Shown piece by piece: positions 7,246-47,640 of a stretch of DNA of 64,000 nt (position 1 is the first letter of the stretch; each line of letters begins with the position of its first letter). This DNA comes from Raillietiella orientalis (lineage: Eukaryota): the NCBI GenBank assembly GCA_036172245.1, contig JAYWIR010000094.1, positions 186,001 to 250,000 of the forward strand. The letters run 5' to 3'. The notes under the pieces were generated by a model. The model searched no databases and was not told the DNA's origin. It was given only the letters and a program-made list of their open reading frames with translations. Both the position numbers and the translations under genes were made by a program.

Positions 7246-7493
7246 TAACACACGGATGCGCCGGGGCGTTTATTTCTTTAATAAAAAAAAATAAACAAGC
7301 AAGTGTAGGGCTATCTCCCCTACAGTGTTCAGAACATGTTCTTCTGAACTCGTCGAGTGGGCAGCACGCAGGCTCCCAAGGTCGACTCGGCAGCGGAGTG
7401 GGAAGGGACAAATAGAAAAAAACAAAAAGAAAACACTATTTACAAAAGCAGGGAGGGGTTGGGGAAGGGATCACGTTCCGCTGGAGACGTCCT

Positions 7494-11055: not shown

Positions 11056-12251
11056 TACTGCTGGGAAAGTGATGCTGCGTCTCCCGCCTCACCTAGGGGC
11101 GGGACGCCGGCTTTCTCCTGTGCGGTGGGGGGTGGCTCGACGACCCCCTCCGTCTCCATCGGCTCCGTCTCGACCGATCGTGGGAGTTCAGGACTCGTGT
11201 CCATCCCTCCCACGCTCGCCGCACCCTCGTTTCCGGAGGATTTCCCTTCCTCGGAGGAGACGATCCTCCTCGGGTTACGGATTTTCCTCCCGGTCTTCCT
11301 CGGGGGTGCAGATGCGGATGGTGCGTGTCCGGTCTCCGGGTCCGAGTCCGAGGTCCCGGTCCCCCTCCTCTCGGCCGGACGTCGAACGGCCTTCTTCCCG
11401 ACCTTTGCGGGAGGCTGCTGACTGGCGGCGAGCTCGGCGGCGGCTTTTGCAAAGCCCGCGTCATCGCGGCTCTCCCCGTCGCCGCAGCCCTCGGACGCTG
11501 TTTGCACAGCGACGGGGCTGTCAGCGTTGTTGCACACGGCAACGTCCTGTTCGCACGGCACTTCGGCGTCTGCAAGGCGCTCCAGTGAGACCGTGCATTT
11601 TTTCAGTCCCTGCTTTTTCGCGGGTTTCGCGGTTTTTGCAGGGACTTTATTTTTATTATTTACGTCCTCTTTTTCTGTCTTTTTCTTTGGACTGACCTTT
11701 TGCCAGCCAGGCTCTTCTACTTCCACCTCGGTTGCCTGCGTTTCTGCAGACGGGGTGGTCGGGATGCCCTTTTTGGCTGGCTCCGGGTCAACCGTATTTT
11801 CAGACGGCGGCCTGGTCTTGCCAGGCTTCTTGCTCGCGTTCGTGCCGCTCACGGCAGCAGCCGGCGCGCGCAAAGTCTTTTTGGGGCACACTTCTTCCGT
11901 GTGCCCGATTGCCTCGCACTTGCGGCAGGTGTTGTTGGGGCAGCGTTTCTTCACGTGCCCCGTACCATCACAAAACGCACAGTATTTGGGTTTCTCCAGA
12001 TACCAGACGTCGACAGAATCTCCGTCGACTACTAGTTTATGGGGAACCCCAATGTCCTTATTCACAGTCACACGTGCCGCGGCGAGTCCGCTCAAGAGTC
12101 CGTCATAAGTACGGAACCTGCTGGGCTTCAGCCACAGCGCGTGTACGGTGCCGAATTTGCTGAGTTCAGCCCTAACGGCGCTCGGTGGCATCCGCACGGT
12201 GATTCCACGGAGGTGGACAACTATTGGGTTGTCCTCTGGCAACGCTGCCAT
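11055..12251 (-). CDS. C ORF1, an open 398-aa frame with two CCHC knuckles that lacks the usual N-terminal block
   Basis: MAALPEDNPIVVHLRG...CAFCDGTGHVKKRC PNNT CRKCEAIGHTEEVC...; its TAA overlaps the ORF2 ATG. Confidence 0.85.
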   Translation of the reverse strand: MAALPEDNPIVVHLRGITVRMPPSAVRAELSKFGTVHALWLKPSRFRTYDGLLSGLAAARVTVNKDIGVPHKLVVDGDSVDVWYLEKPKYCAFCDGTGHVKKRCPNNTCRKCEAIGHTEEVCPKKTLRAPAAAVSGTNASKKPGKTRPPSENTVDPEPAKKGIPTTPSAETQATEVEVEEPGWQKVSPKKKTEKEDVNNKNKVPAKTAKPAKKQGLKKCTVSLERLADAEVPCEQDVAVCNNADSPVAVQTASEGCGDGESRDDAGFAKAAAELAASQQPPAKVGKKAVRRPAERRGTGTSDSDPETGHAPSASAPPRKTGRKIRNPRRIVSSEEGKSSGNEGAASVGGMDTSPELPRSVETEPMETEGVVEPPPTAQEKAGVPPLGEAGDAASLSQQ

Positions 12252-12343
12252 CGGACACCGACGATGTGCACGCACAAATCATTTAAGAAGAAAAAACACT
12301 CGCTTTGCCACGCAGGCGGAGCGCAGGAAAAGCACGTCCGCTC

Positions 12344-20974: not shown

Positions 20975-23112
20975 TTTGGGGGAATCGCCGCCTCCACCCC
21001 TTCAGGGAGGATAGATCCATCCTGATCCATCTCCTCGGAATCAATTTCCGGATGTCCAAAGAGGATGTCCGAAAGGAATTATTAAAATTTGGCACCGTAA
21101 ACGCGCTGTAGAAAAAGCCTACTCCGTTTTGGAAGTATGATCTTCCCAATTGCTGTGAGGCTTCCGCGCGAATCACGGTGCGCGAAACTTGCTCCTTTCC
21201 AAACTAGCTGGAGGTAAACGACGAGCCCGTTGACGTTAAGTATGTTGGTAAGCCGCATTTTTGCGGGCATTCCAGCACTTGAGGTCACCTAAAAAAAAGG
21301 TACCCCTACTTGCAGTGCAAACAATGCCAGCAACCCAGGCACACTTTTCCGGTGTGCCCTCCAAATCAAGTCGGCGTCGCGTCCGCACGGAATGCTAACC
21401 ACTGCGGCCAAAAAAAAAGAGTTCTGGCAGCGCGAGAGCGAGCCGCCACTAAAGACCAAGCTATCGTGCCCCAGATAAAAGCCTGCTCCGAGATCCCGGA
21501 ATACTCGGACAAGGTCGAAGAGAACGGCCAGGAACATGGAGGGCACGTAGTAAAATCCAAGTTGCAGAAAAACCTCAATGAACCAAAAAAAAATTTCGCA
21601 AAACGCAGCGAGAATCTGCCGAGTCACGAAAAGATCGAACGCTGCTCTGTCGTCATCAAGCCCATTCCTGCGGTCGAACAGAGTGGCGAAATTGAACTCT
21701 TCGCTGCCCACTCTAAGCCCTCCGGCAAATTAATGCCGGTGGATACCGAACTGGCGGTATTGTCCGTCGTCAAACTCCTGCTCGAAGACGTCGCCTTTGA
21801 GCGAGCGGCGGTGGAGCTCGCTGCGTCCTTGCAGCGTCCCTCCAACCCCGCGAAAAAGACCTTAAGGCGTCCGACCTCGATCAAGAAGTCGGAGATCTCG
21901 AACTCTGACGCAGAGGAGGAAAACACAGACTGCGGCCTCGCGGCCTCGCGCCCGAGGGCCAGTAACACGAAGAAGGCTACCCGCAAACTTATCCCGTACG
22001 TTGAAAATGGAGACAATCAAGGGGAGCGAGCGTGCGAAGAGAGTGGGGAACACCAGGGACTCTCCTCCAGAGTTAATCAGACGCTGCGACGCTAGAGGAA
22101 GGGAAAAGGTAGAGTCTGTGCCCCAGGTGATTCAACTGCCTGAGATGGCCCCGGTATCCTTACTTGTCTCACCCACCTGTCCCTTGACAGGTGCTGCAAC
22201 ACGACGTTCCCAGCCTGAATGCAGGGAATCGCCTCTTGCCGCCTTCTGCGAATTGCCTGTTGCACCGTCAACGGGCTAAGCGACAACGGAAAGAGACGAG
22301 AGGTGGCCGCCACCCTGGCATCGTTCGACCTCGTGCTACTGCAGGAGATCCACGCGATCTCCGCAGACCAAGCAGCGGAGATCGAGTGTATCTCGGGTGC
22401 ACGGCTGCTGTGGCGCTGCGGCGCCGTTAAATATTGCGGTGTCGCGTTCCCAATTCTGCCAGCTGTCGAGGCCACGGCAAAGGGCGTACGGTTCGATAGT
22501 GCAGATCGAGTCGGGCAGTTGACCATAAGGTGGTCCGACTCCATCGATCTGGTCATTAAAAAGTGTACGCCCCAAGCGACAGCGACGCGTTAAGGGCAAA
22601 GGCAAGGAGAGATTTCTTCCTTACCCTGAGGAGCGAATATCTGGACGAATCGGGAGAGCGCAAAGCGCACCTAATCGCAGGTGACTCTAACCTTCACCTG
22701 CTGTCAGGTGCGTCCGACACACTTCGAAACCTTGTTAACAAGCTAGCGCAGAGATGCACACGCGCAACTTGGTCGCTGTGGATCCGGAAATAACCGACAG
22801 CATACATCTCGTGTTTCTTTACCAGCACCTATGCTTACGCGCGCGCAAGCGGGGCAAGTTACCGTCGCAACTGTCGGACCATGACCGGATCGTACTGGAT
22901 TTGCGCCTATGCGATAGAGGTCCCCCGTCATCTGCGTGGCGATTATCATCTGCGAGGGGGACTGGCTGAAGATTCCGGTAGCCGCGGAACATCTCCGCGG
23001 GTTTCTACGAGGTTACAGCTTGCAGACGCTTCAGGACTGCGACCAATTCAACCGCTCGGTCTGGAAGTTTTGTGACGAGATCTCTATGAACCTCCTACCT
23101 GCCGGGTCAGGC
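20975..23112 (+). mobile_element. Element H: partial ORF1 and APE, cut at the GFG-equivalent site by I
   Basis: CKQCQQPRHTFPVC; MQGIASCRLLRIAC at 22219; ends ...NLLPAGSG. Confidence 0.85.
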
Positions 23113-25477
23113 GTTGCCACCCGTGTACGCTTGGGGCCTTTATTAAACAAAACTCTCTATGAAACTTAATATAAGGCCTCATTGCGTCCTCAGACACGGA
23201 ATATGTCGACACAGGGAAGAAGCCCGTCGTGGCACGCCCCGACAGCGAAAGGGCATGGGGGAAATACCAAAAAGAAAATTGAAGACATAAACAAACGAAA
23301 AGAGTTTGGAGAGCAGGGAACGGATCACCGGACGGTGTGAAAAGGGCCCTTTGGTCGAAGGAAGCCCTCGAAGTCTGTACGCATACTTCCCAGATGGAAT
23401 TATCGAGCAGCTCTTCGCAAGAGGCGTACTGCATGCTGGATGACTTCCCTCTCGTTCCAATCTTCATTTTCGCTGCTGGCGTCGCTCCAACCCGCCACGA
23501 TGCCTCGAACGCAGCAAATAGCCGCGAGGGCTGCTGATGGCTTCAGAGCGTCCCGCACAAAGAAAAGGCGGAAAACGTCTCGGTGTGCAATGCCCATAGG
23601 GAGCCCGAGAATCGTCCCGAACCGTTCCCAAAGTGGTCGGAGAGCATGAGAATTCAATCTAAGGTGGGGGAGCGATTCCCGCTTTTCGCACCTGGCACAC
23701 GCAGGATCCACAGCCTTTTTCGTCCAGTGAAATCGGCGCGCGTTGCAGGGTAGACCCCTATCCAACAGGAGCAACGCGGACTCTTGCCACTTAAGGGGCA
23801 GGATACTGGATTCCTTCATAAATAAGGGGCCACTCGAGCTTATCCCTGGGGATGCGAGCAGCACGCCCCTTCTCAATATTCCACGCACCTGGACGCTCGG
23901 GGTCGTGGCGTCCGATAGTTGACCCATGGTCCAGCCGCACAACTTCTTCCCTCCTCCCTAGAAGCAGCAGGAGACTTGCCACATTGGCGTGCGGCCGTTG
24001 CGAAGAGCCCTCTTCAGTAAGCTCATCGCCGTAGCAAGGCAGGTTGTATCGGTCTACGTGCTTGCAGCGGGATTTTCCAAGGGATCCCGCAGCGTGCAGC
24101 AGACGTTGGGGCCGCATCGGAAACGCTTCCAGCCTTCGTGGGTTCTCCGGATTAACACAGCTCAGGTGCCGATGTTCTCCACCAACGAGGGGGAGGAGTT
24201 GGCAGGGTTGCAAACCATCCAGCGGTTCTCCATGGCCAGGGTTGCCATGCGCCTGAGCAGTAGGATGGATCTTCTTATCTTCCGGCCTGAGCACAGAATA
24301 AAGCACGCGAATCCCTCGCAACATGACACACGGCTGTCTAGGAGGCGGGCCGGAATGCATCAAGGGGCGCTCCACATCTTCGCTGCGATGGCGAGGTTCC
24401 GCCATGGCAGCTGCTTCTTCACGCGTTCCAGCGTCGGGAGGCCAAGACCGCCGTCCCGAGAAGGAGCGCACAAGCCCTTTAGACGGACTCGGGCCTTTCC
24501 CTTGCCCTAATGGGCTATACGGAGGAGGTCCTTTGTGCTCTTCTTAATCTCTAAGAGGGCGGGCAAACAAAAAGCAAGCGGTGGAGGATGGAAGCCGCAA
24601 ATGCATTCCGAACCGCTTCCCGTTCCGGCAAGTGAAACTTTCCTTCCAGAGACTGGCCGAACGCCGTCTCTACTTTTCGGAGGCAGCTGAACCACGCTTC
24701 CGCCGGGGAATAGTCATTAAACGGCACACCAAAGTACTTCGACCACCTAACCGTGGGGATCCCCAAAGACAACCAGTCCTGCTGCCCTACCCACGCCGCA
24801 CCTAATGGAACCACCGACGACTTCGCCCTGTTAACCTGCAGTCCGGTCCCGCGGCAAAGCAGATCGAAGAAGTCCTCGACTGCCTTTGCCGGAGTGGACA
24901 TGGGTAACATAAGCAGAAGATCGTCGGCGTACGTTGCTACGGCGGGCGTATCGGGGCACGAGCACGGCAAGGGAGCCAAGGACACCCTGTACGCTCTCGG
25001 CACCAAACAAAGGTAGGTGCTGAAGTGCACGCGGTTGAGACTATCTCCCTGCCATATACCGCGCCGCGAGGGTACACCATACAATTTCTGACTGCTAAAA
25101 CGGATTGAGATTATCGCATTGCGCCAGCAAGAGCACAGGTAGGAAATCAGAAAGGGTGGGAAGCCCATGCGACCCAGGAGCTCCAAGAGGAGTTCCTGAT
25201 CCACACAGGCGAACGCCTTGTGGAGATCTACTGCGAGCGCTAGGGCCCCTTGTTCGCCCGGGGATTACTTCCCAGCCCGGGTGAAGACCGCAATGTGGGG
25301 TTGCTGGTTTTCCCTTTCACTTTCTTTTTTCTCCTCTGCAGGTGCATCCATGTGCTCGCGAAGAAAAGGTTGGCATCCATATTTCGCCCGGGAACAGTAT
25401 AAGTCTGCTCCCGGCTATTTATGGATTCTGCCACCTGCTTCAGACGCGAAGCCCATAGCCTTGCTGGCAACTTGGCG
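23113..25477 (-). mobile_element. Element I: RT from the DAKL site to the 3' terminus, degenerate
   Basis: TYADDLL, CARCEKRESLPHL; terminus AATAAAGGCCCCAAGCGTACACGGGTGGCAAC. Confidence 0.9.
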
Positions 25478-27994
25478 GGCAAACGTGTTTTTTCCGCGCT
25501 CCTCGGCGCCTGTTGTAAAGGCTTTCTTTGCGTTAGTGTTTGTGTGTGGTGCATCTGCGGTGTGCAATGGCAGAAATTCCAGCGGACACCGCCATGGAGA
25601 TCGGAGGGAGAGAGCCTTTTTATACTCCGCAACCCATAGAGGTGGGGGCGACCACCCCCACGGAGACGAGGGCAATTACCCTCTTGAAAAAGGGATCAAC
25701 CGCCCAGTCGGAAGCGAAAGCTGCCGCTTCCTGGGAAAAAGAAGCAACGGTTACCGTGCAAAAGTATGCAACCGCCCACTTGAAAAACGGGGCAACCGCA
25801 TAATTGGATACTTCCTCGGCAACGACGAATACCTGGAGCGCCATGGAAGCAGCACAATTTCCTGAAGTCATTGGCGAACAGTGTGCCCACAGGGATCAAG
25901 GGTATAAATCATCCTTGATTTCTATGGCAGGGAACCTTTTTGTTGGAAACACCGCTCGGAATTTCGAATGAGAGCTACAACGGTTGCAGGAAAGAAGCAT
26001 GGTTGGCACAAAAACTGCTGCGAACTTTTGTCAGGATCGAAAGTTGCCAGACCTTTCTTGTCCCGGTTGAAAACTTAATAGTTGTTTACCTCCGCGGAAT
26101 CACCTCACGGATGCCACCGAGTGCCGAGAGGGCTGAATGAAGCGAATTCGGCACTGTGCACGCACTGTGGGCGAAGCCCAACAGACTCCGTTCTTATGAC
26201 GGACTTCTAGGCGTGCTCGCTGCTGCGAGCATCACGGTTGCCAATGACGTTGGGATTACCCACAAAATTGTTGTCAACGGAGGTACTGTCGACATCTGGT
26301 ATCTGGGGAAACCCAAATACTGCGCGTTCTGTTATGCTATGGGTCACGTTAAGAAACGTTGTCTAAACATCAGCTGCCGCAAGTGCGAGGTGACCCGGCA
26401 CACGGAAGAAGGCCGTGCCGAACACCCCGTCTGCGGAAACGCATGCAACCGGGGCGGAAGGAGAAGAGTCGGACTGGAAAAAGGTCAGCTACAAAGAAGG
26501 AAATTTGAAAAAGAAGAATAAAGTCCCTTGTAAATCTGCTAAACCCGCAAAAAAGCAGGGACTGAAAAAACGCACGATCGAACTGGAGCGCCTTACAGAC
26601 GCCGAAGTGGCATGCCAACAGGCCTTTGCCGTGTGCAACAACGCCAAAAGTCACGTCGCTGTTCGAAGAGCATCCCAGGGCAGTAGTGAGGGGGAAAGCC
26701 GCGTTGACGCGTACTTTGCGAAAGCTGCCGCCGAGTTCGCCGCCGCCGTTCCGCAATCACTTGCAAAGGGCGAGAAGGCCGCTCAGAGTTCTGCCGAAAG
26801 GAGGGAGACCGGATCCTCGGAATCGGACCCGGAGGCCGGGCACGCACTATCCGTGTCTGCAACACCATGCAAGACCGCAGGGAAAATCCGTGACCCGAGG
26901 AGGATCGTTTCCTCCGAGGAGAAGGAATCTTCCGAAAACGAGGGTGCGTCGAGCGTGGGAGGAATGGACACGAGCCCTCAACTCCCACGCCCGGTCGAGA
27001 CACAGCCGATGCAAGCCGAGGGGGTTCTAGAGGCGCCTTTCACTGCAGACGAGCAAGGAAACATCCTGCCCGATGGGGAGGCGGGAGACGCTGCATCGCT
27101 TTCCCAGAGGTAATGCCGGGACTCGCCAACTGCCGTCAAATCCGCATTGATAGTTGGAACGTCAACGGGCTTTGCGAAGACGGCAGGAGACCACACATAG
27201 CTGCCACCTTACAAGCCTTCGAACTTGTGCTGCTGCCGATGATCCACCAGACCTCCGCAGAACATGCGCGGGAGATCGAGAGGATAGCAGGTGGTCAGCT
27301 AATGTGGCGATGCACCCTCAAACGTACACGAGGGGTCGTCTTCCTTCTGAAGCCTGCGTTACACCGTTCAGTAAGGAAAGTTCGTTTCGATGACACAGGT
27401 CGGGTCGGGCACATCACCTTCAGGTGGTCAGGATCGATCGATCTCGTCGTCACGAATGTGTACGCGTCGAGCGGCGGTCACGTGCGCGTGGCACGGACGG
27501 CATTCTTCCGTGCGTTCCAGCGCGACTGGCTGTCGGAGGCAGGCACGCTCACGGCGCACCTGATGGCCGCCGATTTTAATATTTGCCTGCTATGAGGTGC
27601 GGCGACGACAGAGGCCACCCGGGTTAACGACATGTGCGCCACGGTGCACGCATCCAACTTTTTGGCCGGGGATTCTGGGCTGGATCGGAGCGTGGACCAC
27701 GTCTTCCTCAACGTTCACTTGCGCTTTCGCGTGGGCAGGAGAGGTAAGATACACTCCACCCTCTCCGATCACTCCCGTGTAGAATTTGTCTTTCGCCTGC
27801 GCCAACCGGGGCCACCCTAGCAGGCGTGGCGTCTACCGGGGGACTGACTGACGAAGCCAGGCGTAGCGGAACACCACCGCGCGTTCTTGCGAGGTTTCAG
27901 CCTGCAGATGCTCGACGACTGGGGCGATTTGAAAGTCTCGGTGCGAGAGTTGTGCCAGCAGTTTCCCAGAGCCCGTCTCCCGAAAGGATTTGGT
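25478..27994 (+). mobile_element. Element J: 5' UTR, degenerate ORF1 and APE, cut at the GFG site
   Basis: GGCAAACGTGTTTTTT start; ORF1 and APE closely similar to C; TAATG at 27111-27115; ends ...RLPKGFG. Confidence 0.9.
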
Positions 27995-28117
27995 GTTGCC
28001 ACCCGGGTACGCCCTGGACGTTTATTGAAAAATACTCTTATTAAAGCGTGGTATAAGGCCCCAGTGCGGCCTTAGACACGGGACCTGTCGGGAAAGCGGC
28101 ATGCAGCCCGGCATGGC
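27995..28117 (-). mobile_element. Element K: 3' terminal fragment only
   Basis: AATAAACGTCCAGGGCGTACCCGGGTGGCAAC plus UTR similar to R and I. Confidence 0.85.
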
Positions 28118-28277
28118 AACTCTGCTGCTTCAGTTGATGAAGCTGATCCGAGACGAATGCGATGTTCCCGCCTCGTTTTGGTCAGCCAGAGTGAGGCTCC
28201 TACCGAAAGGGGAAGACTTCAGTTATTCAAGGAACTGGCGTGCGATCACGATTGTGAATACGGACGCCAAGTTGCTA
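28118..28277 (+). mobile_element. RT N-terminal fragment cut at DAKLL
   Basis: LIRDECDVPASFWSARVRLLPKG...NWRAITIVNTDAKLL. Confidence 0.85.
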
Positions 28278-28372
28278 GTTGCCACCCGGTCACGCCGTGG
28301 CGTTTATTAGAAATTCTCTATAATTCTTAGTACGAGGCCCCACTACGGCCAACTCAAAAGGACCTGCCGGGT
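28278..28372 (-). mobile_element. Element L: 3' terminal fragment only
   Basis: AATAAACGCCACGGCGTGACCGGGTGGCAAC. Confidence 0.8.
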
Positions 28373-30254
28373 TGCGGGCGTGAGTGTGAAGCGGAAGAAC
28401 ACCGTGGTCGTACCTGTAGGAGCGTCGTGGGAGGGGCAGTACGACTGAATCCGCCTGGAAATCCCCAAAGCAGGGTATATCAAGTTGCTTGGAGTTCCGC
28501 TTGGGGACCTTGGTTCTGCCGAGGCGTGGTCGGGCTGTTTTCAAAAGACAGAGACAGCAGCCAGGCCATTTACTAACGGCAAGTTCACCTTGCCGGAACG
28601 GGCAACTATTTCGAACACCTTTGTAGCACCTTCCTTTGATCCCTGTTTTTTGTCTCGGACCCCCCTTACGTGGCCAAAGAACGGGGAAAACGCTTGCTAA
28701 AGAACGCACTCTGGGGTACTGCTCGATCCAGGATCCGCCTGAAAAACTTCGCGGCTCCAGTCGGGATGCTGGTGTTGGCATCCTCACGATGGAGAGAATC
28801 GGACTGCAAGTGCAGTTCAGGATGCTCGCACTTTGTGCAGAGCTATGGACTTTCCCCTTATGTGCGCCTCCGCGCATCTACCTAAAGAGGTGTGCGGGCA
28901 GTGAAGGACTTCTTTACTTGGTGCCTGGCATGCGTCACAGGAAACAGGAATTTGGCTACCCTCTGAGGAAAATCGCCTCCCTATTAAAAGCCGATGCGTG
29001 GATTTCCTGCTGCCCGATGAACTGCAATGCTTGGCGGCAGGAAACCATTGATTCTTGGGCTGTATCCTTAGGAATGAGCCGTGAAGAATTCCGCCCCCTG
29101 CGTCGATTTCAACCTTGGTACCTCCAAAATGTCACGCAAGACGAGGTGAAGTTTTCCTCCCTGGCTGCCACGCCGCTCGCCAAAGCACTGTCTGCACTCC
29201 TGGATCGAGATGACAGTAGCCAGCTATTAAAGTGGGAGTTCTCCCGCACTATTGCAGGAAGAACAAAACCAGTTGGCGAATGGGCCACGAGCGAGTTCGC
29301 GGATGCCGCCACTCTTGGTGCAACACCAAAGGGATTACTTCGGTGGGGAGAAGCACTAAGTGCTGCCCCCGAGGAACTTACAATCCCTCCTTGGTGTTTG
29401 GACGGTTCGGTGATTCCCCTTACATGGAAGCAAGACGTCTTGCTCTTCTTACACTGCGGCTTCGGCTAGTACGAGCGGCGACACCGAGTTTCCGGTGGGG
29501 TACCTTCTCCCTACTGTGTTGGTTGCGGGGCGACGGAGTCGTTCCCGCACCTTGTTATGGACTGCGATGCCCTCCATGAACTCTGGAGGAGGCTAGCATC
29601 AGCTCTCCCGCTTCCAAGTGACACCGCTTGAGAAGTGCTGCGACGGTTGTTCCAGCCACAAGGACTTTCGATGGTTGCGACGATTTCCACTATTGGGTGC
29701 ATCCGCGGCATCGTCACGATCCGAGACGTGATGGAGAACCCGGGACAGCAATGTTGTGCAACCAGGAAGGCAGCCTACTTCAACAGGTGGACAGCTGGGT
29801 GGCGACAATTATGGGAAGACACAACGGAGCAGCTAACCGGTATCCATCGCCGGATGAGAAACGGCTTAGAACGACGAACACGGTGATCCGCCATCATTAT
29901 ATTTTTAATTGATTTTTTTATTCTCGCATCCTCTTACCTATACGCTCCGCAGTGGTGTTTGTGCTGAAACTTTTGAGTTTCCCGGTGACTGCGGAGCGTC
30001 CCTAACGTTCCCTGGCCCACTCCTACAGTTTAGAATTTTGTTGTTGTTTTTTTGTTTTCCTTTTTTGTTTTGTTTTATTTTGTTTTTGTTTTGTTTTTGT
30101 TTTTGGAATCCCCTCAGTCGTCCGTGTAATTCCGTTTTCCTGACCTGCGTGGCAGTGGTGAATCTCCGCTGCTTGTCTTTATAGTCGTGTCCTGGAAACA
30201 ACTGTTTCTAGCTCGTTTATATCAATAAACGTCCCGGCGTTATCGGGTAAAAAA
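28373..30254 (+). mobile_element. Element M: ORF2 C-terminal half and 3' end of a divergent subfamily (like O)
   Basis: LGVPLGD, RDAGVGILTMERIG, CVGCGATESFPHLVMDC; AATAAACGTCCCGGCGTTATCGGGTAAAAAA. Confidence 0.87.
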
Positions 30255-31221
30255 TTCCAACGTTCGCCTTAACCAGATGGGTACAATCACGAGCGTGACC
30301 TGGTCAACGAGGTGTGCATAGCGGTGCACACCTGTAATTAGTTGGTCAGTGCACCGGAGATCAAATACAGTATGGACCAAGTGTTCCCTGATCAGCACCT
30401 GTGTCCTCGCGTGGGCAGGCGCGGCAAGTTACCATATGACCTGTCCGACCATCGTCCGATAGTTCTCGAGATCCAACCGCGCGACAGGGGCCGCCCCTCG
30501 TCAGCGTAGCGTATACCAGGGGACTGGCTGTAGCTCTCGGACGCGGCGCAACATCTTTACACGTTCATACTGAACTTCAGGCAGCGGACACTCTAGGATT
30601 GCGACCGCTTCAAGCGGCCGTCCTAGGAGTTTTGCTACCAGTTGCCTCTGCACCGCCTACCTACAAGTTTTGGGACCAGGGCCCGTAATGACCGAGCTTA
30701 CCTGCAGGCCCGTCGTTACGCCAAGATCCCCGAGATTTGAAGGATCGCGGAATACAAAGACGGAGCCGAGAGGCGAGCCTTACAGTCCGGATCGGCCAGC
30801 TTCCTGGAAGATCAGGGCGAGAAGCACTCGGCACCCGACCAAATCCGCGGCGTAATGGGGAGACACTACTCCTCCCTGCATGTCAGGGCGCCTCCGGAGA
30901 GAAATGTCTCAAGACTCCTGCTTCCGGAAGGCGCTTCGATGATCGGGGAGGAGACAAAGCCCCTGGACGAGATTCTTTCGGACATCGGAAAGCTCAAGAG
31001 GAGCAAGGCTCCAGGAGAGGACGGCCTGTTCGCGGATTTTTATCAAACTTTCGTCACTGAGCTCATCCCCCTGATGCAGCAACACCATGCTAATACGCGA
31101 GACAGGTGACGTTACCGCCTCGTATCTTTCGGCAAAGGTGCGGCTCCTCCCTAAGGGAAGAGACCTAAGGAGAATAAACTGGCGTGGAATCACAATATTG
31201 AATGCGGATGCCAAGTTGCTA
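30255..31221 (+). mobile_element. Element N: late APE, linker and early RT (P-like), many stops, cut at DAKLL
   Basis: Similar to 35660-36650; KAPGEDGL; ends NADAKLL. Confidence 0.85.
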
Positions 31222-33424
31222 GTTGCCACCCGGTCACGCCGGGGCGTTTATTAATAAAAATGAACTGGTTAGGGACAATGTCCATAACCAACAAAACGAC
31301 AGAGAACATAGAATAATTACCGGCACGCAGGCCTGGTAAACAAACCGCTCGCAGCGTTGGAGGAATGAGGGGAAACAAACAAAAATCAAAAACTGGAGGG
31401 AAGGGGAACGGGTTTTTGGTTATGCTCCATACTCACGGGGATTTAAACGATGAGCACCTAAAATGTTCCGGAGCCTATGGGGACGCGGGTGTAAAAAGAA
31501 AATACAAAAATAGTTTATGGAGGGTAGGGCAATGATCACCGGGTTGGCCGCTGCTGAGCGTGTGTAAACCGGCGGTGTATTGCGGCGAAATTCCTTTTTG
31601 TCTCCTCTGTTAAATGAGGCCATCTAGCGGATGCTCCCATGTAGAAGGATGCTTTGCTGATCACCTCTTGGTGCTGTCCGTTGATTACCAACGCCTGGCG
31701 GACGGAAACTATCGCGCGTATGCAACCGATGGTTGCAATCCTTGCGCTTAGTGACAGCCCGCTCGGCGTGAAGAATCGTCGCAGCAAGTCTCTTGCGGTG
31801 TCCACGGGATGCATTAATGCTGTTGCCAGCCTAAGTTACAGTCCTTGTAGGACACCGCAGTCCAGAAGTAGGTGCGGAATCGACTCCGTCGATCCGCACC
31901 GAACGCAGTTCGCTGGCGCAAGTCCCCCAGAGTCACGATGCCAACGCTCGTTGCACTGAAAACCTCAGTGAACGAAAAGCAGCACGGCTTGTTTCCAAGC
32001 AAGGGGGAGCAGCGAACTGTCCATACACTGTGGAGAGACTACAAGTTCTTCGGGGGTGACAGCAAGTTCTTCTGCCCACCGGAGGAGTCCCTTTGCAGTA
32101 ACACGAGGAGTAGCGGCGTCCGCCAACTCACTTGTCTTCCAGGTGCCAAGGAGTTTGGTTCTTCCCGCTATCGTGCAGGAAACCTCCCACCTCGCCGGTT
32201 GGTAACTGTCGTTTCTTGCCCTGAGGGCAGACAGCGCAACAGCAAGAGACGTGGCAGACAGGGTAGAAAACTTCACCTCGTCCTGCAGTACTTCTTCCAA
32301 GGATCGTGGAAAAAATTGGCGCAGGGGGCGAAAATCTTCAGGGCGTATTCCTTGGAACGCCGCCCAGGATTCAACAGACTCCTGCCGCAAAGCTTTAAAG
32401 TTCATTGGGCGGCAGGAGATCCACGAGTGTGCTTCCAGAAGTGCGGTCAAATGCCGCAATGGAAACCCGATACCCCGCTTCCTGTATTGAGTGCCCGGCA
32501 AAAGCGAGAGAAATCCTCCGCTGTCGGCGCATCTCCGCAGGAGAATGCGGGCTGGCACACACAGGGGGATGTCCATAGCTGGGTACACAGTGCAAGCAGT
32601 AGGAACTGCACATGAAGTCCGATTCGCTCCATTGTCAGGATACCCAAACCAGCATCCCTACGCGGAGCTAACAAATCTTTAAGGCGGATTCTGGATCTCG
32701 CCGGACCCCAGAGAGCGTTCTTGAGCAGGCGTTTAGCCCGCTGTTTTGCCGCATAGGGGGCGTTTAAAACCAAAAAAAGCGGACGGAGGAGGGGGGCCAC
32801 AAAGGTGTTCCAAATAGTCGCCCGATCCTGCAAAGTAAACTTGCCGTTAAAGAACGGGCTGATGGCCAACTCTGCTTTCTGAAGACAGTCCGCCCACGCT
32901 TCGGCTGCGCCGAAAGCGCCCAACGGAACGCCAAGGTACTTAAAGTACCCGCCCGTGGGGATCCCCAGGCGGATCCAGTCGGACTGCCCCTCCCACGACG
33001 TACCCACAGGAACGACCACGGTGTTCTCTCTGTTCACGTTCATACCCCCTCCCCGACAAATCAGGTCAAAGAAATCCTCGACACTGGACGCCGAAGTGGA
33101 CATGGGGAGCAGAAGAAGCAGGTCATCAGCGTAGGCGGCCACGGCAGGCGTTCCCGGGCAGGAGCTTGGCAAGTGATACAGCGTCAGCCTGTATGCTCTT
33201 AGCACCAACTCAAAGAAGATGCTGAAGAGCAATGGGCTTAAGCTGTCGCCCTGTTGGATGCCCCTACGAACAAGAATACCATACACGCGGCAGCCGCTGA
33301 AAGTGATGCAGCTTAGCGCGTGGCGCCAGCACGCGCGCAAATACAGCAGTAGTTGCGCCGGGAACCCAAGTTGTTCCATAAGCTCCAAGAGCAGCTTCTG
33401 GTTTACGCAGTAGAATGCCTTGTG
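31222..33424 (-). mobile_element. Element O: RT from the HKAF site to the 3' terminus
   Basis: 313-aa ORF with GIQQGDSLSPLLF, AYADD, KYLGVP; terminus AATAAACGCCCCGGCGTGACCGGGTGGCAAC. Confidence 0.9.
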
Positions 33425-33431
33425 TGCTCCA

Positions 33432-36400
33432 GGGTGGACGTGTTTTCTCGGTGCTCCTCGTGCCAGGAAGTCTCCCCCAGTGCAAGCGTCGTGTGGTTCG
33501 GTGGTCGATCAGGCAGCGATGCCTGACGCGACCACCAGGGATGGACAGGGGGCAGCAGCAACGCCGCCCCCAGAGGCGATGGAAAGCCAGGGGGTGCGGC
33601 AACGTCGCCCCCGGAGGCGATGGAGGTGGGGGCATCCGCCCCCACAGAATCGGTCCCCGCTGCAGCGCGGGCGTGGAGCGCCGTTGTGTCGGCGCCATCG
33701 CCTGCAGCCGCGGCGGAATTGTCGGCCTATGTAGAGGAGGGGTGCAACCCCTCATTGTTCTACAAGGTAGGCAATTTATATTCTCCGGAGAGCGCTCGCG
33801 CCTTCTCGAAGGGGATGCGCGCTCTCGATGTGAAAGAGGAGGAGCTCAGCGCTATGACCATCCGCAGGGGGGTCAGTACGTTCAGGTCATCTGCAAACAT
33901 GCAGATCTGGCCCAACGACTGCTTATAACCCCTGTTGTGATAGGGAAGCGCAGGCTTCTCCCCACTACGGCGGACCGCAGCATGGTGGTCCACATGTTAG
34001 GCGTAAACGCGCGAATGCGCGACGAACAGGTTCACGCCGCTTTGGAACAGTTCGGAACGGTACACGCGCAGTGGACGAAAGTAAGTCCTTTCGAGGACTA
34101 CACGGGCTGCAACACGGCCTCACTGCTGCGCGCGTGACCGTTCAAGAGGGCTGCACTCTTCCGCACAAACTGGTGGTCGAAGGCGAAACCGTCGCCCTCT
34201 GGTATGTGGGGAAGCCGAAATACTGTGGCTTCTGCTATACTTTGGGTCACCTCAAAAAGAGGTGTCCCAATGTGCAGTGCCAAGTATGCGGAACAATGGG
34301 TCACACGAGGGAGGTGTGCCCAAAAGCAACAGTGCAGGTGGTTTCCAAGAAAAACCTTAAAAAACGCCCTCGGCTTCTGCAGAAAAGGCTGGCGGAGAAA
34401 GCTGCCGCGAAGGCTGTGCCACCCGCGCCCAAGACCCAGGCCGCACCCGGGACCCTGGCGACCAACGCCGAAAAAGTTCAGGGAGCCGGCCAGGAGACTG
34501 GGTGGCAAGTGGCAACGGCCAAAAAATCAAACAAGGAGAGGAGGATGGAAAAGAAAATCGCCTACCAACAAAAGAAAAAAGAGCAGGGTAGCGCGATAAT
34601 TAAAGAGTGCAGCGTCGTTGTCGGACGCGTTCTCGATGTTGCCGAACGCTGCCGGAAAGAACTCGCCGCTACCGATGACCTCCCCTCTGTTGACACTGTC
34701 AACAGCGAGGGGAGCGAGCCGGCGGCGGCGTCCGTCATCGACACCACCATCGATGACGTAGCCTTTGCGCGAGCCGCGGAGGAGCCGGCAGCCTCGTTCC
34801 AGCCAGAACCCTCCAAGGCTGGCAAGACGGCCGTAAGGCGTCCGGCCTCCCCTCAGGAGTATCCCACTCCCGACCCCGAGGTGGAGGCCGGAAGCGCAGC
34901 CTCCGTTTCCACGGCACCGCGCAAGAAGGCTGGACGTAATTCCACAAAGCCATGGAAGCTCGTCTTCCCCGTCGAAGGGGAAGAGATGGCTTTCGCAAGC
35001 GAGGGTGCCATGAGCGTGGGAAATTCTCGGGACCCGTCGCCGGAGTGACTACCACGCGCGGACACGGAGGGGATGGAGGGGGTGGAGGCCGAACAGGTGC
35101 CTTAGGTGCCTGAGAAGGCCGAGACCCCCATGGAAATCCCGCCCGCCTCGCAAGATGAGGCGTCCCCCACACCTTAATCTTCCCAGCAGTAATGCTGGGA
35201 ATCTCCTCCCGCCGTCGTCTGCGCATCGCTGTTTGGAACGTGAACCGCATGACAGACGCCGGCAGGAGACGAGACATGGCCGCCCTTCTGGAGTCCTACG
35301 AGCTTGCGCTGCTGCAGGAGATCCACGTGATCTCTGCAGAACAAGCGCAAGAGATCGAACAAATCTCCGGAGGGCGGCTATGGTACAGGTATGGGAGAGC
35401 GAAAAGTTGCGGTGTCGCCTACCTGCTTCGGCCAGCCGTCGACGCCGCGGCTCGGGGCGTGGGGTTCGACGATCGCGGTCGTGTCGGCCAGCTGACTCTC
35501 AGGTGGTCCGAGTCGATCGATCTGCTCGTCACGAACGTGTACGCACCGAGCGGCAAGGACGTGATGAACAGGAGGGCGAGGAAAGAGCTTTTCCTTGCTC
35601 TCCGGCGAGACTGGCTGACCAAAGCAGGCGTGCGGAATGCCCATCTAATTGCAGGAGATTTCAACGTCCGCATGAAACCAGATGATCAGAATCCCGAGCG
35701 TGACCTGGTAAACGAGGTGTGCATGGCGGTTCACACCTGTAATCTGTTGGCCAGTGCACCGGGGATGGAGGACAGCATTGACCACGTGTTTCTTGACGAG
35801 CACCTGTGCCCTCGTGTGGGCAGGCGCGGCAAGTTACCGTGCGAGCTGTCCGACCATCGCCCGCTTGTCCTCGAGATCCATCCGAGCGACAGGGGCCCCC
35901 CCTCGTCAGCGTGGCGTCTCCCAGGGGACTAGCTAAAGCTCCCGGATGCGGCGAAACATCTCCGCACGTTCATACGGAGCTTCAGGCTGCGGACAATCCA
36001 GGATTGGGACCGCTGTAAGCGGTCGGTCCAAAAGTTCTGCGACCAGTTCCCTCTGCACCGCCTACCCACGGGTTTTGGGATCAGAGTCCGTAACGAACGA
36101 GCCTACCTGCAGGCCCGTCGTTACGTTAGGACCGCCGACATTTGCAGGGTGGCGGAATACAAAGAGGGAGCCGAGAGGCAAGCCTGGCAGTCCGGATCGG
36201 CCAGCTTACTGGACGATCAGGTCCAGGAGCACTCGGCACCTGCCCAAATCCGCGGCCTGCTGCGGAGTTACTACTCCTCCCTGTATGCCAGGCCACCTCC
36301 GGATAAAAACGTCTCACGACTCCTGCTTTCGAAAGGCGCTCCAGCTATCGGAGAGGAGCAGAGAAAGACCCTCGACGAGCCTTTCACGATGGACGAGACC

Positions 36401-38990
36401 CTGTCGGCCATCGGAAAGCTCAAGAGCCGAAAGGCACCAGTAGAGGACGGCCTGCCCGCGGAGTTCTATCAAACTTTCGCTGCTGAGCTTACCCCCCTTT
36501 TACAGCAACTCACCTTGCTGATACGCGAAACAGGTGACGTTCCCGCCTCGTTTCGTTCGGCAAAGGTGCGGCTCCTCCCTAAGGGAGGAGATCTGAGGAG
36601 CATGAACACCTGGCGTCCCATCACAATAGTGAATGCGGACGCCAAGTTGATAGCCAAGATGTGAGCAGAGCGTCTGCGACGGGTTGCCAGCATCTTTATC
36701 AGCCCGGAACAGACATATGCTGTTCCCAAGCGAAGCATGGAGGCGAACCTGTTCCTCGCTTCCACCTGGCTAGAGCTCCAACATGAAAGGAGCTTGGTGC
36801 GCAGCCGGAATTCCGGTGCGTGCGCCGGCATGGGGTGGGATGGTCGGGTGGGGTAGGGAGCCCTTGCGGTCGCAATCGACTTGCGGAAAGCATTCGATTG
36901 CGTCGACCAGAATCTCCTTCTGGAGCTTCTGGAACGCTTGGGCTTCCCGGCCTCATTAGTGGCCTATCTACGCTCCTGCTGGCGCGACGCGCTCATCAAT
37001 GTTACTTTCAGCGGGCAGACCGTTCACGGCGTGCTAAAGCGGCGTGGAATCCGGCAGGGAGACAGCCTGAGCCCCTTGCTCTTCAGTACCTACTTTGAAT
37101 TGGTACTGAGAGCGTACAGGGGAACTCTGGCGCACCTGCCGCACGACTGTGCCGATCCGCCGGCCGTTTCAGCATATGCGGACGACCTTCTGCTGCTGCT
37201 CCCTATGTCCACCCTGGCTGCGGCGGTCGAGGAGTTCTTCGACCTGCTGCATCCGGGAACCGGACTTACGGTGAACAGGGCGAAGTCGTCCGTGATGCCA
37301 GTTGGTGCGGTGTGGGCAGGGCAGCAGGACTGGGTCCGTTTGGGAATCCCTACGGTGAGGTACTTCAAGTACCTTGGTGTGCCGTTGAGGGACTACTCCC
37401 CTGCGGAAGCGTGGTCCAACTGCCTTCAAAAAGTAGAGACGGCGATCGGCCCGTTCCGAGGCGGCAGGTTTTTCCTGCCTGAACGGGCCGCGGTTTGGAA
37501 CACGTTCTCGGCTCCTCTCCTAAGCCCCCTGCTTTTTGTTTGCCCCAACACAGAGAGAATAAAAAAGCAAACAAAGACCTCCTCCGTATCGCCCTTTGGG
37601 GCAACGGGAGGGCCCGAGTCCGCTTAAAGGACTTGTGCGCTCCTCGTCGGGATGGTGGTCTGGGCCTCCTGACGCTGGAGCGGCTGGAGCTTCAGCTCCA
37701 GTTCCGCTTGTCGGCACTCGTTCCAGAGTTGTGGTGCACCTGTTGGTGCGTCCCTGCACGTCTCCTTCTCCAGCAACCCACCGGCAAGACGGGACTGACG
37801 TCGTTTCTTGCACTCCGTCGCCTTGTGAACCGATACGAACTCCAGCTACGGAGGGTGGCTGCGCTGTATCGGAAAAACCCAGGATTGCTCACCTGTCGCC
37901 CGTTGAACGGTAGTGCCTGGTTGCAGGAAACCGTTCGAACGTGGGGACAGTTCGGCATGCAACGCTCCCAACAGGAACAAAGGTTCCTGTTTGGGGGTTA
38001 CAGAAGTTGCACGCATCGCGAGATCCTAAAGGATCCAAAGAAGAGAGCGTGGGCAGGAAGAACCCCCCTCGCTGCTGCGCTACCCTCCCTGATGGAAGAT
38101 CTGGACAGCGATGTTGCGGCGAAGTGGGTGGTTACAGTAACAATTTCCGGAAAGGAGAAGAAGATAGGAGAGTGGAAGACGGGCCAGTTAACAGACGCTG
38201 CAACCCCAAGTACGCCTCCCAATGGACTTCTGCGCTGGGGCGCGCTGCTCGATGTTCCCATTGAACATTTGAAGTGGCCCCCGGTGCTCATGAACACTTC
38301 CGCCCTCCCCTTAAAATAGCAGGAGTCGACTCTCCTTTTGCAGCACTGGGGACTACCCTGCAACGCCCGCCGACACCACTGGACCTGAGGAGCGGTGGAC
38401 CACAATTGCGTCAGGTGTGGGGATAGGGAGTCCGTCCCCCACCTGCTAGTGGATTGTGTTGCCCTTTGGCCCCTTTGGTTTCGCTTTGCCGCGGCCATCG
38501 GAATCCCCTGCGGCAACCCCAGGGACGCACTGAAAGCCCTCTTCGTTGCCGACGCCCTTCGGCCAGCGGCCTCGTTAGCAGTTTTGTGCTGCCTGCGCGG
38601 GATCGTCACCGTTCGGAGCAAGGCTACGGAAGGACAACGCGATCAGGGTGCCATCCAGCCAGCCTTCCAGTTCCTTAGGAGGGCGTGTCGATGGCCCATC
38701 CTGGATCCAGAAATACAGAAGGAGCTTGCCGGCATCCTACAAAGGATGCAACGGCCCCACCAGCAACTGTGATCCCTTCCCTTACCCTCCCAACTTTTCT
38801 TTTCTTTCTTGTTTTGTTTTTTGTTTTTCCCCCTTCCCCCTGCTGCCGTAATGGACCGTACCGGTCTGCGAACCGGTGACCCGGCAGGCTCTGTGTTCCT
38901 TCGTGCGTGGCTGGAGCAATGGTCTAGCCACCGCACGTCTTTGTAAATGTTTATTTTACAATAAACGCCCCGGCGAAATCCGGGCGAAAA
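33432..38990 (+). mobile_element. Element P: full-length (~5.56 kb) but mutated copy; the best structural reference in the window
   Basis: GGGTGGACGTGTTTT start; ORF1 ~33519-35192; TAATG; ORF2 35192-38772 with stops and frameshifts; AATAAA-hairpin at 38960-38990; imperfect 14-bp direct repeat on both flanks. Confidence 0.95.
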
Positions 38991-41900
38991 TCGAACGCCT
39001 TGTGGAGAGCGACTGCGAGCGCAAGGGCCCCCTTCCCCGCCCGGGGGTCCCTTCCCAACAAGGCTGGCGGCCCCAATGTGGGGTTGCCGACTTTCCCTAT
39101 CCCTTTATTTTCTCTTCTCTGCAGGTGCACCCATGTGCTTGCGAAGAAGAGGTTGGCATCCATACTTCGCCCGGGAACAGCATAAGTCTGCTCCGGGCTG
39201 ATTACGGATTCTACCACCTGCCCCAGACGCGAAGCCCATAGCCCTGCTATTAACTTGGCGTCCGTATTTACGATCGTGATCGGACGCCAGTTCTTTAAAT
39301 CCCTGAGGTCTCCCCCTTTCGGAAGGAGCCTCACTCTGGCTGACAGAAACGAGGCGGGAACATCGCCTTCGTCTCGGATCAGCCTGTTCAACTCAAGCAG
39401 CAGGGGTGCCAGCTCTTCCGCGAAGCTCTGAAAGAACTTTGCGGGCAAGCCGTCTTCCCCAGGAGCTTTACACCTCTTGAGCCTTTCGATACCGGCGAGA
39501 ATTTCGCCGGTGGTAAAAGGCTCGTGGAGGCTTTCCATCTCCTCCTCCCCTATTGACGGGGCGCCATCCGGAAGCAAGCGCCGGAAAGGGTTTCAATCCG
39601 GGAGCTATCCGGCGTAAAGGGAGGTATAAAAACTCCGCACGAAATGCCGTACCGACGCCGGGGACGAACATTCCCGGCCCTGGTCGTCCAGCAAGCTGGC
39701 CGACCCGGATTGCCAGGCTTAGCGTTCGACCCAGGCGCGATACTCGGCCAGGCGACGGACATTAGGGGTTCCCTCGTACCTGCGAGCCCGTAAATAGGCC
39801 CTATGGTTGCGAGCACCCTCGCCGAATCCGGGGGGCAGGCGATCCAGGGGGAACTGCTCACAAAACTCTTGGACCGATTCCTTAAAAAGGTCCCAGCCCT
39901 GGAGATTGTGGAGCGTGACGCCTCTCAGGTATTCGCGAAGGTGTTCCTTTGCACCGGCAGACGCCAATCCCTGGATGGCGGTTTGCCAAACAGTCGCGCT
40001 TCAGGGATTCCAGCAACCTGGTACCCTAGCTGTATCCCCCCTTCTTGCTTGGAGCGTAAACGTTCGTGACGATCAGTTCGATCGAGTAGGACCAGCTGAG
40101 AATCAGCTGACCGATCCGACCGTCGTCATCGAAGCGCACGCCCTTCACGGCAGCGTCCAGAGCCGGCTTCACGAAGAAGGCGACCCCGCAGGTGTTGCCG
40201 AGGCCGCACCGGCAATACATACGACCCCCGCGATCGTCTCGATCTCCTGGGCGTCTGTCGCGGTGATCACGTGGATCTCCTGCAGCAGGGCCAAATGGAG
40301 CTCACGCAGGGTGTCGGCCGTATCTCGCCTGTTACCGTCGTCGCGCAGCCCGTTGACGTTCCAGCAGGCGGAGCGAATCCGACGGCGACTGGCGAGCCCA
40401 GGTGCTACTTCTGGGAAGAAGGCGATGCGGCGTCCGCAACCTGCTGAGGCGGGACGCTAGGTGGAATAGGAGGGTCAGGTGCTGAAAGCACTTAATCCCA
40501 CTCCTCTATAGGAAACTGTACGTCGAGCGGGTCACCCACAGGTGGGGTCGCGCCTACCTGTTCGCCCCCCTCCATGGGGGCGGGCTGTTCAGGCTCGGCG
40601 ACTGCAGGTAGGACTTCGCCCCCCTGCTCACACGCCTTCATGGGGTTGGCCGGCTCGACGGCTTCCGAGCGTAGGAGTTCCCCTCCGGGATTCCCACGCT
40701 ACCGCTAGCTTCCTGCTTCTCCTCCTCGCTGGTAAAGGGGAGGCGCCTCCTGGGTTTCTGGGACTTGCGTCCCGACTTCCTGGGGGGTGCCTCCGAGAAT
40801 GAGGATGCACTTCCGGCCCCCAGGTCCGACTCACCTGTGGGGGCCTTTTTCGCGGGAGCCGGCGTTCGCACGGCCTTGCGTGAGGGGTTCTCACGCTCCG
40901 CCAGCGTGGCCGCGAGCTCCTCCGCCGCCTTTGCGAACGCGGCGTCCTCGGTGTCGACCGGCGCGTCGCGCGGCTCACCCTCTGTTTGCACAGAGGGTTC
41001 GCCGTCGCGAACTTCGGGCGCGACGAAAACGGCGAGGGGAGGCTCGTCGCTCCGGGTGGCATCTTCGGGAACGACGATACGTTCCAGTGCCACCGTGCAC
41101 TCGCGTACGGTTTTCGAACGCGGCCAGGGTTTTTTCGCCTTACCTGCCGGCTTTTCTTTTTTCTCCTTCAAAGGAGCTTTTCTCTCTTTCCTGGCTGCTA
41201 CAAGTTGCCAGTCCTCTTCACCTTCCGCCTCTTGGGAAGGTTTATCCTCCGTCTTTTCTTTTGGAGGTTGAGGATCTGGCAGCTTCAGCCGGCTAGCGTC
41301 CGCCTTAGGTCTTGTGACCTCTAGTGCGGGTTTCCTCTGCGCCTTTTTTGCGGCAGGAGTAACCGGGGTGGAGCATTTTGGGCACACACGTCGAACGTGG
41401 CCCTTCTCCTTGCACATGTGGCATTGGATGTTAGGACACCTCTTGCGAAGGTGTCCTATGGTATCGCAGTAGCCGCAATACCGGGGCTTTCCCACGTACC
41501 AGAGGTCCACGCTCTCTTGCGCGACCTCCAGCTTGTGGGGAAGCCCACAGTTCTTACTCACGGTTACCCGCGCTGCAGCCTGGCCTCCGAAATGGCTATT
41601 AAAGTCTTCAAAGATTGTTGCCTTAGGCCACAACGCGTGCACCTCGCCGAACTTCTGTAGTTCTTGTGCTACCGCAGCGCGAGTCATACGGCTCGTTATT
41701 CCAGTTAAATGGACCAACATGGTGCGGTCCATCGTCACCGGCAAGATCTTCCGGCCGTCGACGTTCAACGGATTGGTGATTAGAGTCTGAGCCAACGTGA
41801 TCTTCTTGCACACCACCTCGACTCGCTGACCTCCGCTGAGAACGGACAAACCGTCCAGATCTTGTTCTCTTACTCCGGCGTTTTGCAGCACTTTCGAAAA

Positions 41901-42242
41901 CGCGCGTGCCGTTTTTCCGTCAATTAAGGGGCCTACCTCGTACATCAAGCGTGGCTTGTACCCAGCTGCTTGGTAGGCCGCCATCTCGGCCACGGTTTCC
42001 GCGCTCGGCGCGGCCACCATGGCGCTCCAGCTTTTCGCCTTGAACGGCTAGGGCGATTCCGGGGCGGACGCCCCTGATTCTGTAAACTGTGGGGGTGGGC
42101 AAGCCTCCCTCACCCCTACCTCCATCGTGGTGTCCTCAGACATTGCTTCCAACGGACACCAACGATGTTCCACAGTAAACAACACAAGAAAAAACCGCTA
42201 CCTGTCGACTCACTCGGAAGCGAAGAAAAAACACGTCCACTC
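38991..42242 (-). mobile_element. Element Q: 5' UTR, ORF1, internally deleted APE, and RT up to HKAFD
   Basis: GAGTGGACGTGTTTT start; 460-aa ORF1 stretch 40638-42020 (CGYCDTIGHLRKRC/CHMCKEKGHVRRVC); APE breaks off after NVYAPS near 40040. Confidence 0.92.
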
Positions 42243-42257
42243 GCCAAGGGCTTCTGC
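42243..42257 (+). repeat. Isolated 15-bp target-site remnant between tandem elements Q and R
   Basis: GCC AAG GGC TTC TGC resembles the host P-K-G-F-G codons. Confidence 0.75.

Positions 42258-46860: not shown

Positions 46861-47640
<780 letters not shown>

Follow-up and report, generated by a model that had tools for sequence, protein, structure and literature searches.

In a 64,000-nucleotide (nt) stretch of contig JAYWIR010000094.1 of Raillietiella orientalis (hereafter the window, in which all positions are given and from which all counts are taken), copies of one retrotransposon family are repeatedly broken by the ends of their relatives within the reverse transcriptase (RT) codons for the residues DAKL. 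Whatever its cause, the pattern of these junctions looks like real site-specific self-targeting. We consider it probable, at roughly 0.7, that the window from position 1 to ~46.9 kb is a self-nested cluster of a single L1-like family of long interspersed nuclear elements (LINEs) encoding an endonuclease and an RT, in which several subfamilies are represented and new copies use target-primed reverse transcription to enter older ones at a small number of favored positions in the second open reading frame (ORF2), nearly always antisense. As originally predicted, the DAKL codons join those for GFG as a place where antisense breaks recur at a precise position: of the 10 copies that span the site, 3 are interrupted and 7 are intact.

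Positions within the element are expressed on refA, a full-length copy of 5107 nt (reverse complement of 7247-12353), on which the GFG, DAKL, and KAFD sites lie at ~2178, ~2749, and ~3004, respectively. Two 3' ends, at 28277/8 and 31221/2, had been described as having one junction sequence, and the + strand does contain the 31-mer composed of GCCAAGTTGCTA and, directly after it, GTTGCCACCCGGTCACGCC exactly twice, at 28266-28296 and 31210-31240. No match to this 31-mer was obtained in 100 shuffles of the sequence, and a shorter junction 18-mer, searched with up to three mismatches allowed, was found in the window at the same two places only. The 31-mer consists of 12 nt of host RT (…DAKLL), which are near-invariant in the family, and 19 nt of the conserved tail in reverse complement. 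Both hosts are in frame on the + strand and end with ...RAITIVNTDAKLL and ...RGITILNADAKLL (...ITIVNTDAKLL and ...ITILNADAKLL, respectively), the host sense strand ahead of the tail being ...GCCAAGTTG followed by CTA. Past each junction, the sequence is that of the family 3' end in reverse complement, and it aligns with the ends of eight other copies; therefore, the inserts lie on the - strand, antisense to their hosts.

The first host, m (28114-28277, + strand), is a 164-nt RT fragment of a group A subfamily that maps to refA 2589-2749, ends with ...ITIVNTDAKL(L), and is 85-87% identical to copies S1 and s. It is abutted by the terminus ...GGCGTGACCGGGTGGCAAC of insert n (28278-28372, - strand), a 95-nt 5'-truncated 3' end that aligns with the ends of the 3' untranslated regions (UTRs) of U, l, and H8. 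The second host, p (30257-31221, + strand), is a 5'-truncated copy of a group B subfamily, which maps to refA 1805-2749 and runs from the C-terminal part of the endonuclease to ...ITILNADAKL(L), with the GFG site in between left intact. Its insert, q (31222-33421, - strand), comprises the 3'UTR and the C-terminal part of ORF2 back to the KAFD motif, with an RVT_1 match in 32447-33508.

An alignment of the 164 nt preceding the junction gives 65.4% identity between m and p, which belong to different subfamilies, as had been proposed: m clusters with S1, s, and S4 (78.7-87.2%), p falls in with r, U, and S2 (79.2-86.2%, and 86% to r in the last 164 nt), and each carries the bases of its own subfamily right up to GCCAAG. 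At their 3' termini, n and q agree at 31 of 32 positions, and their bodies diverge beyond, the 3'UTR body of n resembling those of U, l, and H8 and not that of q. Since the hosts are 65% identical and of different subfamilies, and since the inserts differ beyond 32 nt, the 3' junctions represent separate events at one nucleotide; the two hosts are not one duplicated locus, which had been named as an outcome that would count against the original prediction.

A 5' junction lies at 25477/8, where, as had been noted, the 5' end of element J abuts a host that resumes at CGCCAAGTTGCCA. This antisense host, H8 (23100-25477, - strand), is the downstream RT half of a group-A-like copy (refA 2740-5107), which starts at CGCCAAGTTGCCA and reads CGCCAAGTTGCCAGCAAGG... 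from the break. Element J (25478-27993, + strand) begins with GGCAAACGTGTTTTTTCC, and this start can be aligned with the core conserved among eight other 5' ends; the element comprises the 5' end, the 5'UTR, ORF1, and the endonuclease domain, belongs to the subfamily of refA, and is cut at its GFG site (27993) by tail l (27994-28113, - strand), a ~120-nt 5'-truncated 3' end in the antisense orientation. H8 in turn has its own 3' end in copy c7, antisense, at the GFG/GSG site (23099/23100). The 5' junction is located 10-13 bp upstream on the host, i.e., at the offset expected of a staggered second nick. The pair m and n was also considered as the inverted partner of the H8-J junction, which was not supported, as the 3'UTR of n is unlike that of refA, the closest relative of J.

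An additional arrangement at 42232-42257 (+ strand) is suggestive of a fourth DAKL junction. Here the reverse complement of the 5' core of t (- strand) is followed by CGCCAAG (42242-42248), 9 nt, and the 3' tail of U from 42258; CGCCAAG thus stands directly beside the 5' core of t, in the same arrangement as at the junction of J, and the match to the start of the DAKL duplication is 7 nt only. Intact DAKL sites are found in S2 (5547-5563, + strand) and at positions starting at 1722 (-), 9616 (-), 12921 (+), 36638 (+), 39262 (-), and 44881 (-).

Both 3' junctions read TTG-CTA-G-TTGCC, and the break is ambiguous by 3-4 nt, i.e., it may lie after TTG or after CTA/CTAG, so that the last 3 nt of m (CTA, 28275-28277) are assignable to host or insert. 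The codon after DAKL in the eight other copies is AGA, CTT, GTT, ATT, ATA (in three copies), or CCA (in H8), and CTA in none of them. The CTA at both junctions may belong to the insert, and the duplication may be 10 bp rather than 13; if CTA is part of the insert and the break is after TTG, the duplicated sequence is therefore CGCCAAGTTG, whose 10 bp are close to the 9 bp at GFG and at insertion v (described below). Alternatively, it is conceivable that a nuclease or an annealing step demands TTGCTAGC; TTGCTAGCAA would be a 10-nt palindrome. Because the 3' junction of J itself is outside the window, the length of the duplication is deduced rather than read directly. The ~13-14 bp of the original prediction are accordingly kept as regards the 5' junction, which is at a matching offset, and relaxed as regards the length, for which 10 to 13-14 bp are implied.

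The two kinds of element ends are well defined in the family. Ten 3' ends can be aligned from the stop codon of ORF2 onward, across a T-rich stretch and small hairpins, up to AATAAA and the ~25 nt that complete the element; two more, recognized by motif, bring the tails in the window to 12. None of the 12 ends in a long A-run, and no poly(A) or simple-repeat tail was found among them; eight end with ...GGCG-NNN-CCGGGTGGCA(A/T)C or a variant (the end is also given as ...GGGTGGCA(A/T)C), and four end with 3-6 A. The terminal 19-mer is …CCGGGTGGCAAC with variants. Nine 5' ends have the common core G(A/T)G(C/T)GGACGTGTTTTTCC, the 5' core being GCGGACGTG. Folding of the 3'UTR gave only small conserved hairpins with weak covariation. 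Tails are 5'-truncated at 95, 120, and 266 nt. Other identities of these pieces were considered and rejected: the ~100-nt pieces after GFG are not an intron or linker, since they align with the 3'UTR ends of full-length copies, and DAKLL is not joined to a sense-strand 3'UTR by internal deletion, since the pieces align as 3'UTR ends and q continues into antisense ORF2.

The A-ended tails, which terminate at 38990 (r), 30254 (o), 46860, and 51494 with ...CCGGGCGAAAA, ...CGGGTAAAAAA, and similar sequences, also have similar flanks. The bases immediately before the tail are GCGTTCGA, ACGTTGGA, ACGTGGA, and CCTTGGA (consensus, ~CGTTGGA), which suggests that this class has a separate short target preference. 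The 3'UTR of o includes a (TTTTG)n-like tract at 30036-30105.

In an alignment of 16 ORF2 pieces, the DAKL 12-mer GACGCCAAGYTG ranks first for conservation among 3565 segments of 12 nt (0.975), and the GFG and KAFD sites rank ~1800 and ~333, respectively. The earlier proposal that the insertions are aimed at conserved codons thus holds for DAKL and does not extend to a general rule, given the rank of GFG. Of 12 copies, 6 are broken at the GFG site: a tail terminates three upstream halves (15301, 23099, and 27993), and three downstream halves abut full-length 5' ends (12354, 45448, and 46348), with upstream and downstream halves overlapping by ~9 nt, GGATTCGGC. Copies c7 (23085-23099) and z (46348-46362) are the only ones that read G-S-G (TCA/TCT) at this site; they may be two halves of one host, in which case 23.1-46.3 kb would be nested in a single GFG site. 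The 9-nt overlap of c7 and z matches at only six of nine positions.

The KAFD site, which we take to be catalytic motif A of the RT, is used once, antisense and with both a 3' and a 5' junction, by the full-length element r (33422-38990). The 3' end of r lies in s directly after ...AAGGCGTTCGA, and its 5' end lies beside q, which resumes at AAGGCATTC. The flanks of r (31222-33421 and 38991-39955) come from different subfamilies, suggesting that two similar insertions have recombined. The segments q, s, and t were rejected as parts of one element, q being ~68% and s ~89% identical to S1. The 5' region of r contains a 41-nt tandem duplication (33546-33624).

The 12 tails are distributed over GFG (3), DAKL (2), KAFD (1), and single sites (6), and among the nine with an identifiable host seven are antisense and two are sense (v in U, and o before p). 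At both DAKL (two tails) and GFG (three tails), the same nucleotide of a repeated target is entered in one orientation, all antisense, in hosts of different subfamilies. Insertion v (43243-43508), which is 266 nt long, 5'-truncated, and sense, is flanked by a perfect 9-bp duplication, GCAGCGGGC, and its uninterrupted paralogue is present at 336-346. In this paralogue, the target of v resembles the family's own 5' core (GCGGACGT). A common short motif was rejected as an explanation of the sites, as CGTT[CG]GA occurs 22 times in the cluster and is occupied at two of these positions.

From these junctions we infer the order of nicking, the length of the DAKL duplication, and the source of the specificity. 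The host sense strand would be nicked within TTG/CTA/G at DAKL, and the 3'-OH of the host would prime cDNA synthesis, which would begin precisely at the final base of the incoming RNA (...GGGUGGCAAC, 25 nt after AAUAAA), with no poly(A) copied. A second nick on the other strand, 10-13 bp upstream, would then give rise to a duplication starting at CGCCAAG. The polarity of the junctions fits target-primed reverse transcription, in that the host sense strand runs directly into the complement of the last bases of the RNA.

Several observations weigh against this scheme of nested, target-primed insertion. The sample is one window of one assembly, and no DAKL insertion in it has both ends and both host halves. 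Element J is cut at GFG and is without its 3' part, its downstream half being absent; n is followed by o, an unrelated RT fragment on the + strand (from 28373; refA 3353-5107); and the downstream half of p is missing, unless CGCCAAG at 42242-42248 is its remnant. The 3' end of copy S3 (refA) lies in S2, at refA ~4440, and the 5' end of S3 lies in S4, at the GFG site; r stands between q (~68% identical to S1) and s (~89%), both of which are broken at KAFD. Flanks from different hosts thus surround several inserts, and rearrangement must therefore be invoked each time. In addition, no sequence motif is common to DAKL, GFG, and KAFD. It is plausible that like-oriented inserts later recombined ectopically or underwent deletion between them, or that 5' ends joined a second nicked site, leaving the mismatched flanks.

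Two explanations of how the DAKL site is set, namely, homing guided by the RNA and a shift in the endonuclease, were rated about equal, and neither is demonstrated. In the former, which we put forward tentatively, the target would be remembered through the RNA: transcripts would run a few to tens of bases into the antisense host flank, anneal to the same conserved site elsewhere, and set priming there, the endonuclease being unchanged; daughter copies would thereby return to the position held by their parent. The presence of CTA after DAKL at both junctions and in none of the eight other copies fits 3 nt carried with the insert, and with CTA in the insert the duplication becomes 10 bp, near the 9 bp at GFG and v. 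RNA-guided homing would also account for the use of several discrete sites by the close relatives J and refA and for the best site being the most conserved 12-mer. It has a precedent in R1Bm, the RNA of which, according to the part of the source considered here, must include target sequence from downstream if initiation is to be accurate (PMC7265360, citing Anzai 2005). However, this explanation is read from sequence, in which only 3 nt are informative, and GFG is not especially conserved (rank ~1800 of 3565); the CTA could also be present in the hosts by chance or as a nuclease requirement, TTGCTAGCAA being a 10-nt palindrome.

The latter explanation, which we regard as doubtful, is that the DAKL inserters are a separate subfamily, the endonuclease of which has newly evolved its specificity, as in LINEs of the R1, TRAS, and Tx1 types. 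Both DAKL tails end with the variant GGCGTGACCGGGTGGCAAC, with 31 of the last 32 nt identical, and carry ...GGCGTGACCGGG... (TGACC), whereas the five other tails of this class, at GFG or elsewhere, have TAC or TAT at that place; the association of the TGACC variant with the site (2 against 5 tails) has a p value of ~0.05, as calculated by hand. The A-ended tails (r, o, 46860, and 51494) have their own flank consensus, ~CGTTGGA, and therefore tail type and flank co-vary. On the other hand, J and refA, which provide 5' junctions at DAKL and GFG, respectively, are members of one subfamily, and their endonuclease regions are 87% identical in nucleotide sequence, with 230 of 300 codons identical. 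Moreover, the 3'UTR body of n is similar to those of the GFG inserters l and H8 and unlike that of q, neither of the two DAKL nor any of the three GFG 3' inserters in the window is still joined to an endonuclease domain, and the counts compared are 2 and 5. Of the different subfamily with shifted specificity that was originally suggested, a distinct type of inserter is thus weakly supported by the TGACC variant (2 versus 5), and the shift of the endonuclease is not supported, J and refA belonging to one subfamily.

A single original DAKL junction that segmental duplication or gene conversion later copied, or that a collapse or chimera of the assembly at the common 31-mer doubled, would agree with the identity of the two junctions over exactly 31 nt, with other rearrangements in the cluster, and with the 133-nt poly(G) run at 47139-47271, which hints at imperfect assembly nearby, but it is highly improbable in view of the host flanks (65% identical, with their own subfamily signatures up to GCCAAG), the divergence of the inserts after 32 nt, and the third junction, of the opposite type, in another host at 25477/8.

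An extension of RNA-guided homing, which is speculative and in our estimate unlikely, is that the landing site itself is inherited. Flank bases at the 3' end of the RNA would guide the next insertion, and the family would split into "site lineages" (GFG, DAKL, and KAFD) with an unchanged endonuclease; competitors would be disabled at the least mutable sequence, within a safe-haven cluster that may be centromeric.

The GC content of the window is ~58% from 1 to ~46.9 kb and drops to 40-47% beyond. The GC-rich part holds more than 20 fragments of the family on both strands, with pairwise identities of 60-91%, and the cluster extends past the left edge of the window. At the edge where the GC content falls, positions 47139-47271 are a 133-nt run of G (96% matches), which could be a real homopolymer or an artifact of sequencing or assembly. 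More diverged family fragments (~60% identical to refA) are present at 50549-51494 and 63445-63851, in the AT-richer flank outside the main cluster, and one of this pair keeps a recognizable 3' tail.

The best-preserved ORF (4020-6494, 824 amino acids) contains Exo_endo_phos (E = 4.3e-15) and RVT_1 (E = 9.5e-15) domains, and APE-type endonuclease and RT domains are also present in further copies. Weak matches were obtained to zf-RVT downstream (23.3 and 22.4 bits, under the cut-off of 27.5) and to the zinc knuckle zf-CCHC_6 in ORF1 (E = 0.0075, under its cut-off). In refA (10318-10420) and J (27790-27830), a shared stop and change of frame separate the endonuclease from the linker/RT (...RGVYRGT[G/D]-stop), a place at which S2 is one continuous ORF; this feature is either a programmed frameshift of the subfamily or a defect that both copies took over from one master copy.

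Outside the window, one close protein relative, P0002, was found on a metagenome contig; it is 72% identical and has an intact DAKLLAKLW sequence, and all other matches are at most 28% identical (remote matches, 22-28%). A search of genome contigs with the ORF2 protein gave 13 pattern matches, none of which was confirmed, and a search of the ESM Atlas gave generic endonuclease-RT clusters only. A scan of metagenomes with the loose pattern GWTGCCACCCGGNNACGCC gave at least 120 loci; because none among the matches listed has the TTTATT/TTAATT continuation, these are taken as chance matches. A longer tail pattern had no match in genome contigs or in viral contigs.

LINEs with specific target sites have been described in rRNA genes, telomeres, small RNA genes, and a few transposons, and LINE clusters that nest within themselves have been described in green algae. 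If the self-nested cluster is as we describe it, a family that aims antisense at exact codons of the ORF2 of its relatives, including the most conserved 12-mer of the RT, would be new. It would provide a nucleotide-level mechanism for the growth of such clusters, which are candidate centromeres, and a case of retrotransposons that disable rival copies; it would also be a natural LINE with a defined 10-13-bp target, i.e., a model of targeted insertion like R2 or R1. No description of codon-level antisense self-targeting was found in the literature searched, which did not cover the original descriptions of Zepp, and this is no proof that the phenomenon is unpublished.

Among known systems, the L1-type LINEs Zepp and ZeppL of the green algae Coccomyxa and Chlamydomonas are described, in the portions of the accounts considered here, as inserting into their own older copies, with a single GC-rich nested cluster on a chromosome of lower GC content and frequent 5' truncation (PMC8226300, PMC3446292). 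The cluster presented in this study is similar in being nested within the family's own copies, GC-rich (~58% versus 40-47% in the flank), and rich in 5'-truncated copies. It differs in the exact nucleotide target, the orientation rule, and the location of the site in coding sequence, none of which is given in those portions of the Zepp text, and in that its elements are without a poly(A) tail. A kinship with Zepp is not apparent from the proteins, as the best algal match with a name, a Coccomyxa LINE-1 (P0007; E = 1.8e-16, 27% identity over 46% of the query), is no closer than the animal matches.

LINEs of the R1 and Tx1 clades (R1, TRAS, SART, Tx1, and Keno) include other transposons among their targets, according to the part of the source considered (PMC4640811). 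The elements of the window resemble them, by insertion pattern, in the APE-type endonuclease, the use of one exact nucleotide of a multicopy target, and the fixed orientation. Unlike in these clades, the target here is the coding sequence of the family itself, in antisense, and at least three unrelated sites (GFG, DAKL, and KAFD) are used in one family. The precise start of the cDNA at the last base of the element, with no poly(A) copied, is similar to that of R1Bm and SART1, for which the passages considered also indicate that a few flank nt may travel with the RNA (PMC7265360); in contrast to R1Bm and SART1, the idea of RNA annealing in the present family is drawn from the 3-nt CTA common to two junctions. 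The short 3'-end pieces (95, 120, and 266 nt) and the 9-bp target duplications resemble ordinary "dead-on-arrival" insertions of L1. Nicking by L1 follows a loose TTTT/AA consensus and permits insertion almost anywhere, whereas 6 of the 12 tails in the window lie at three exact positions.

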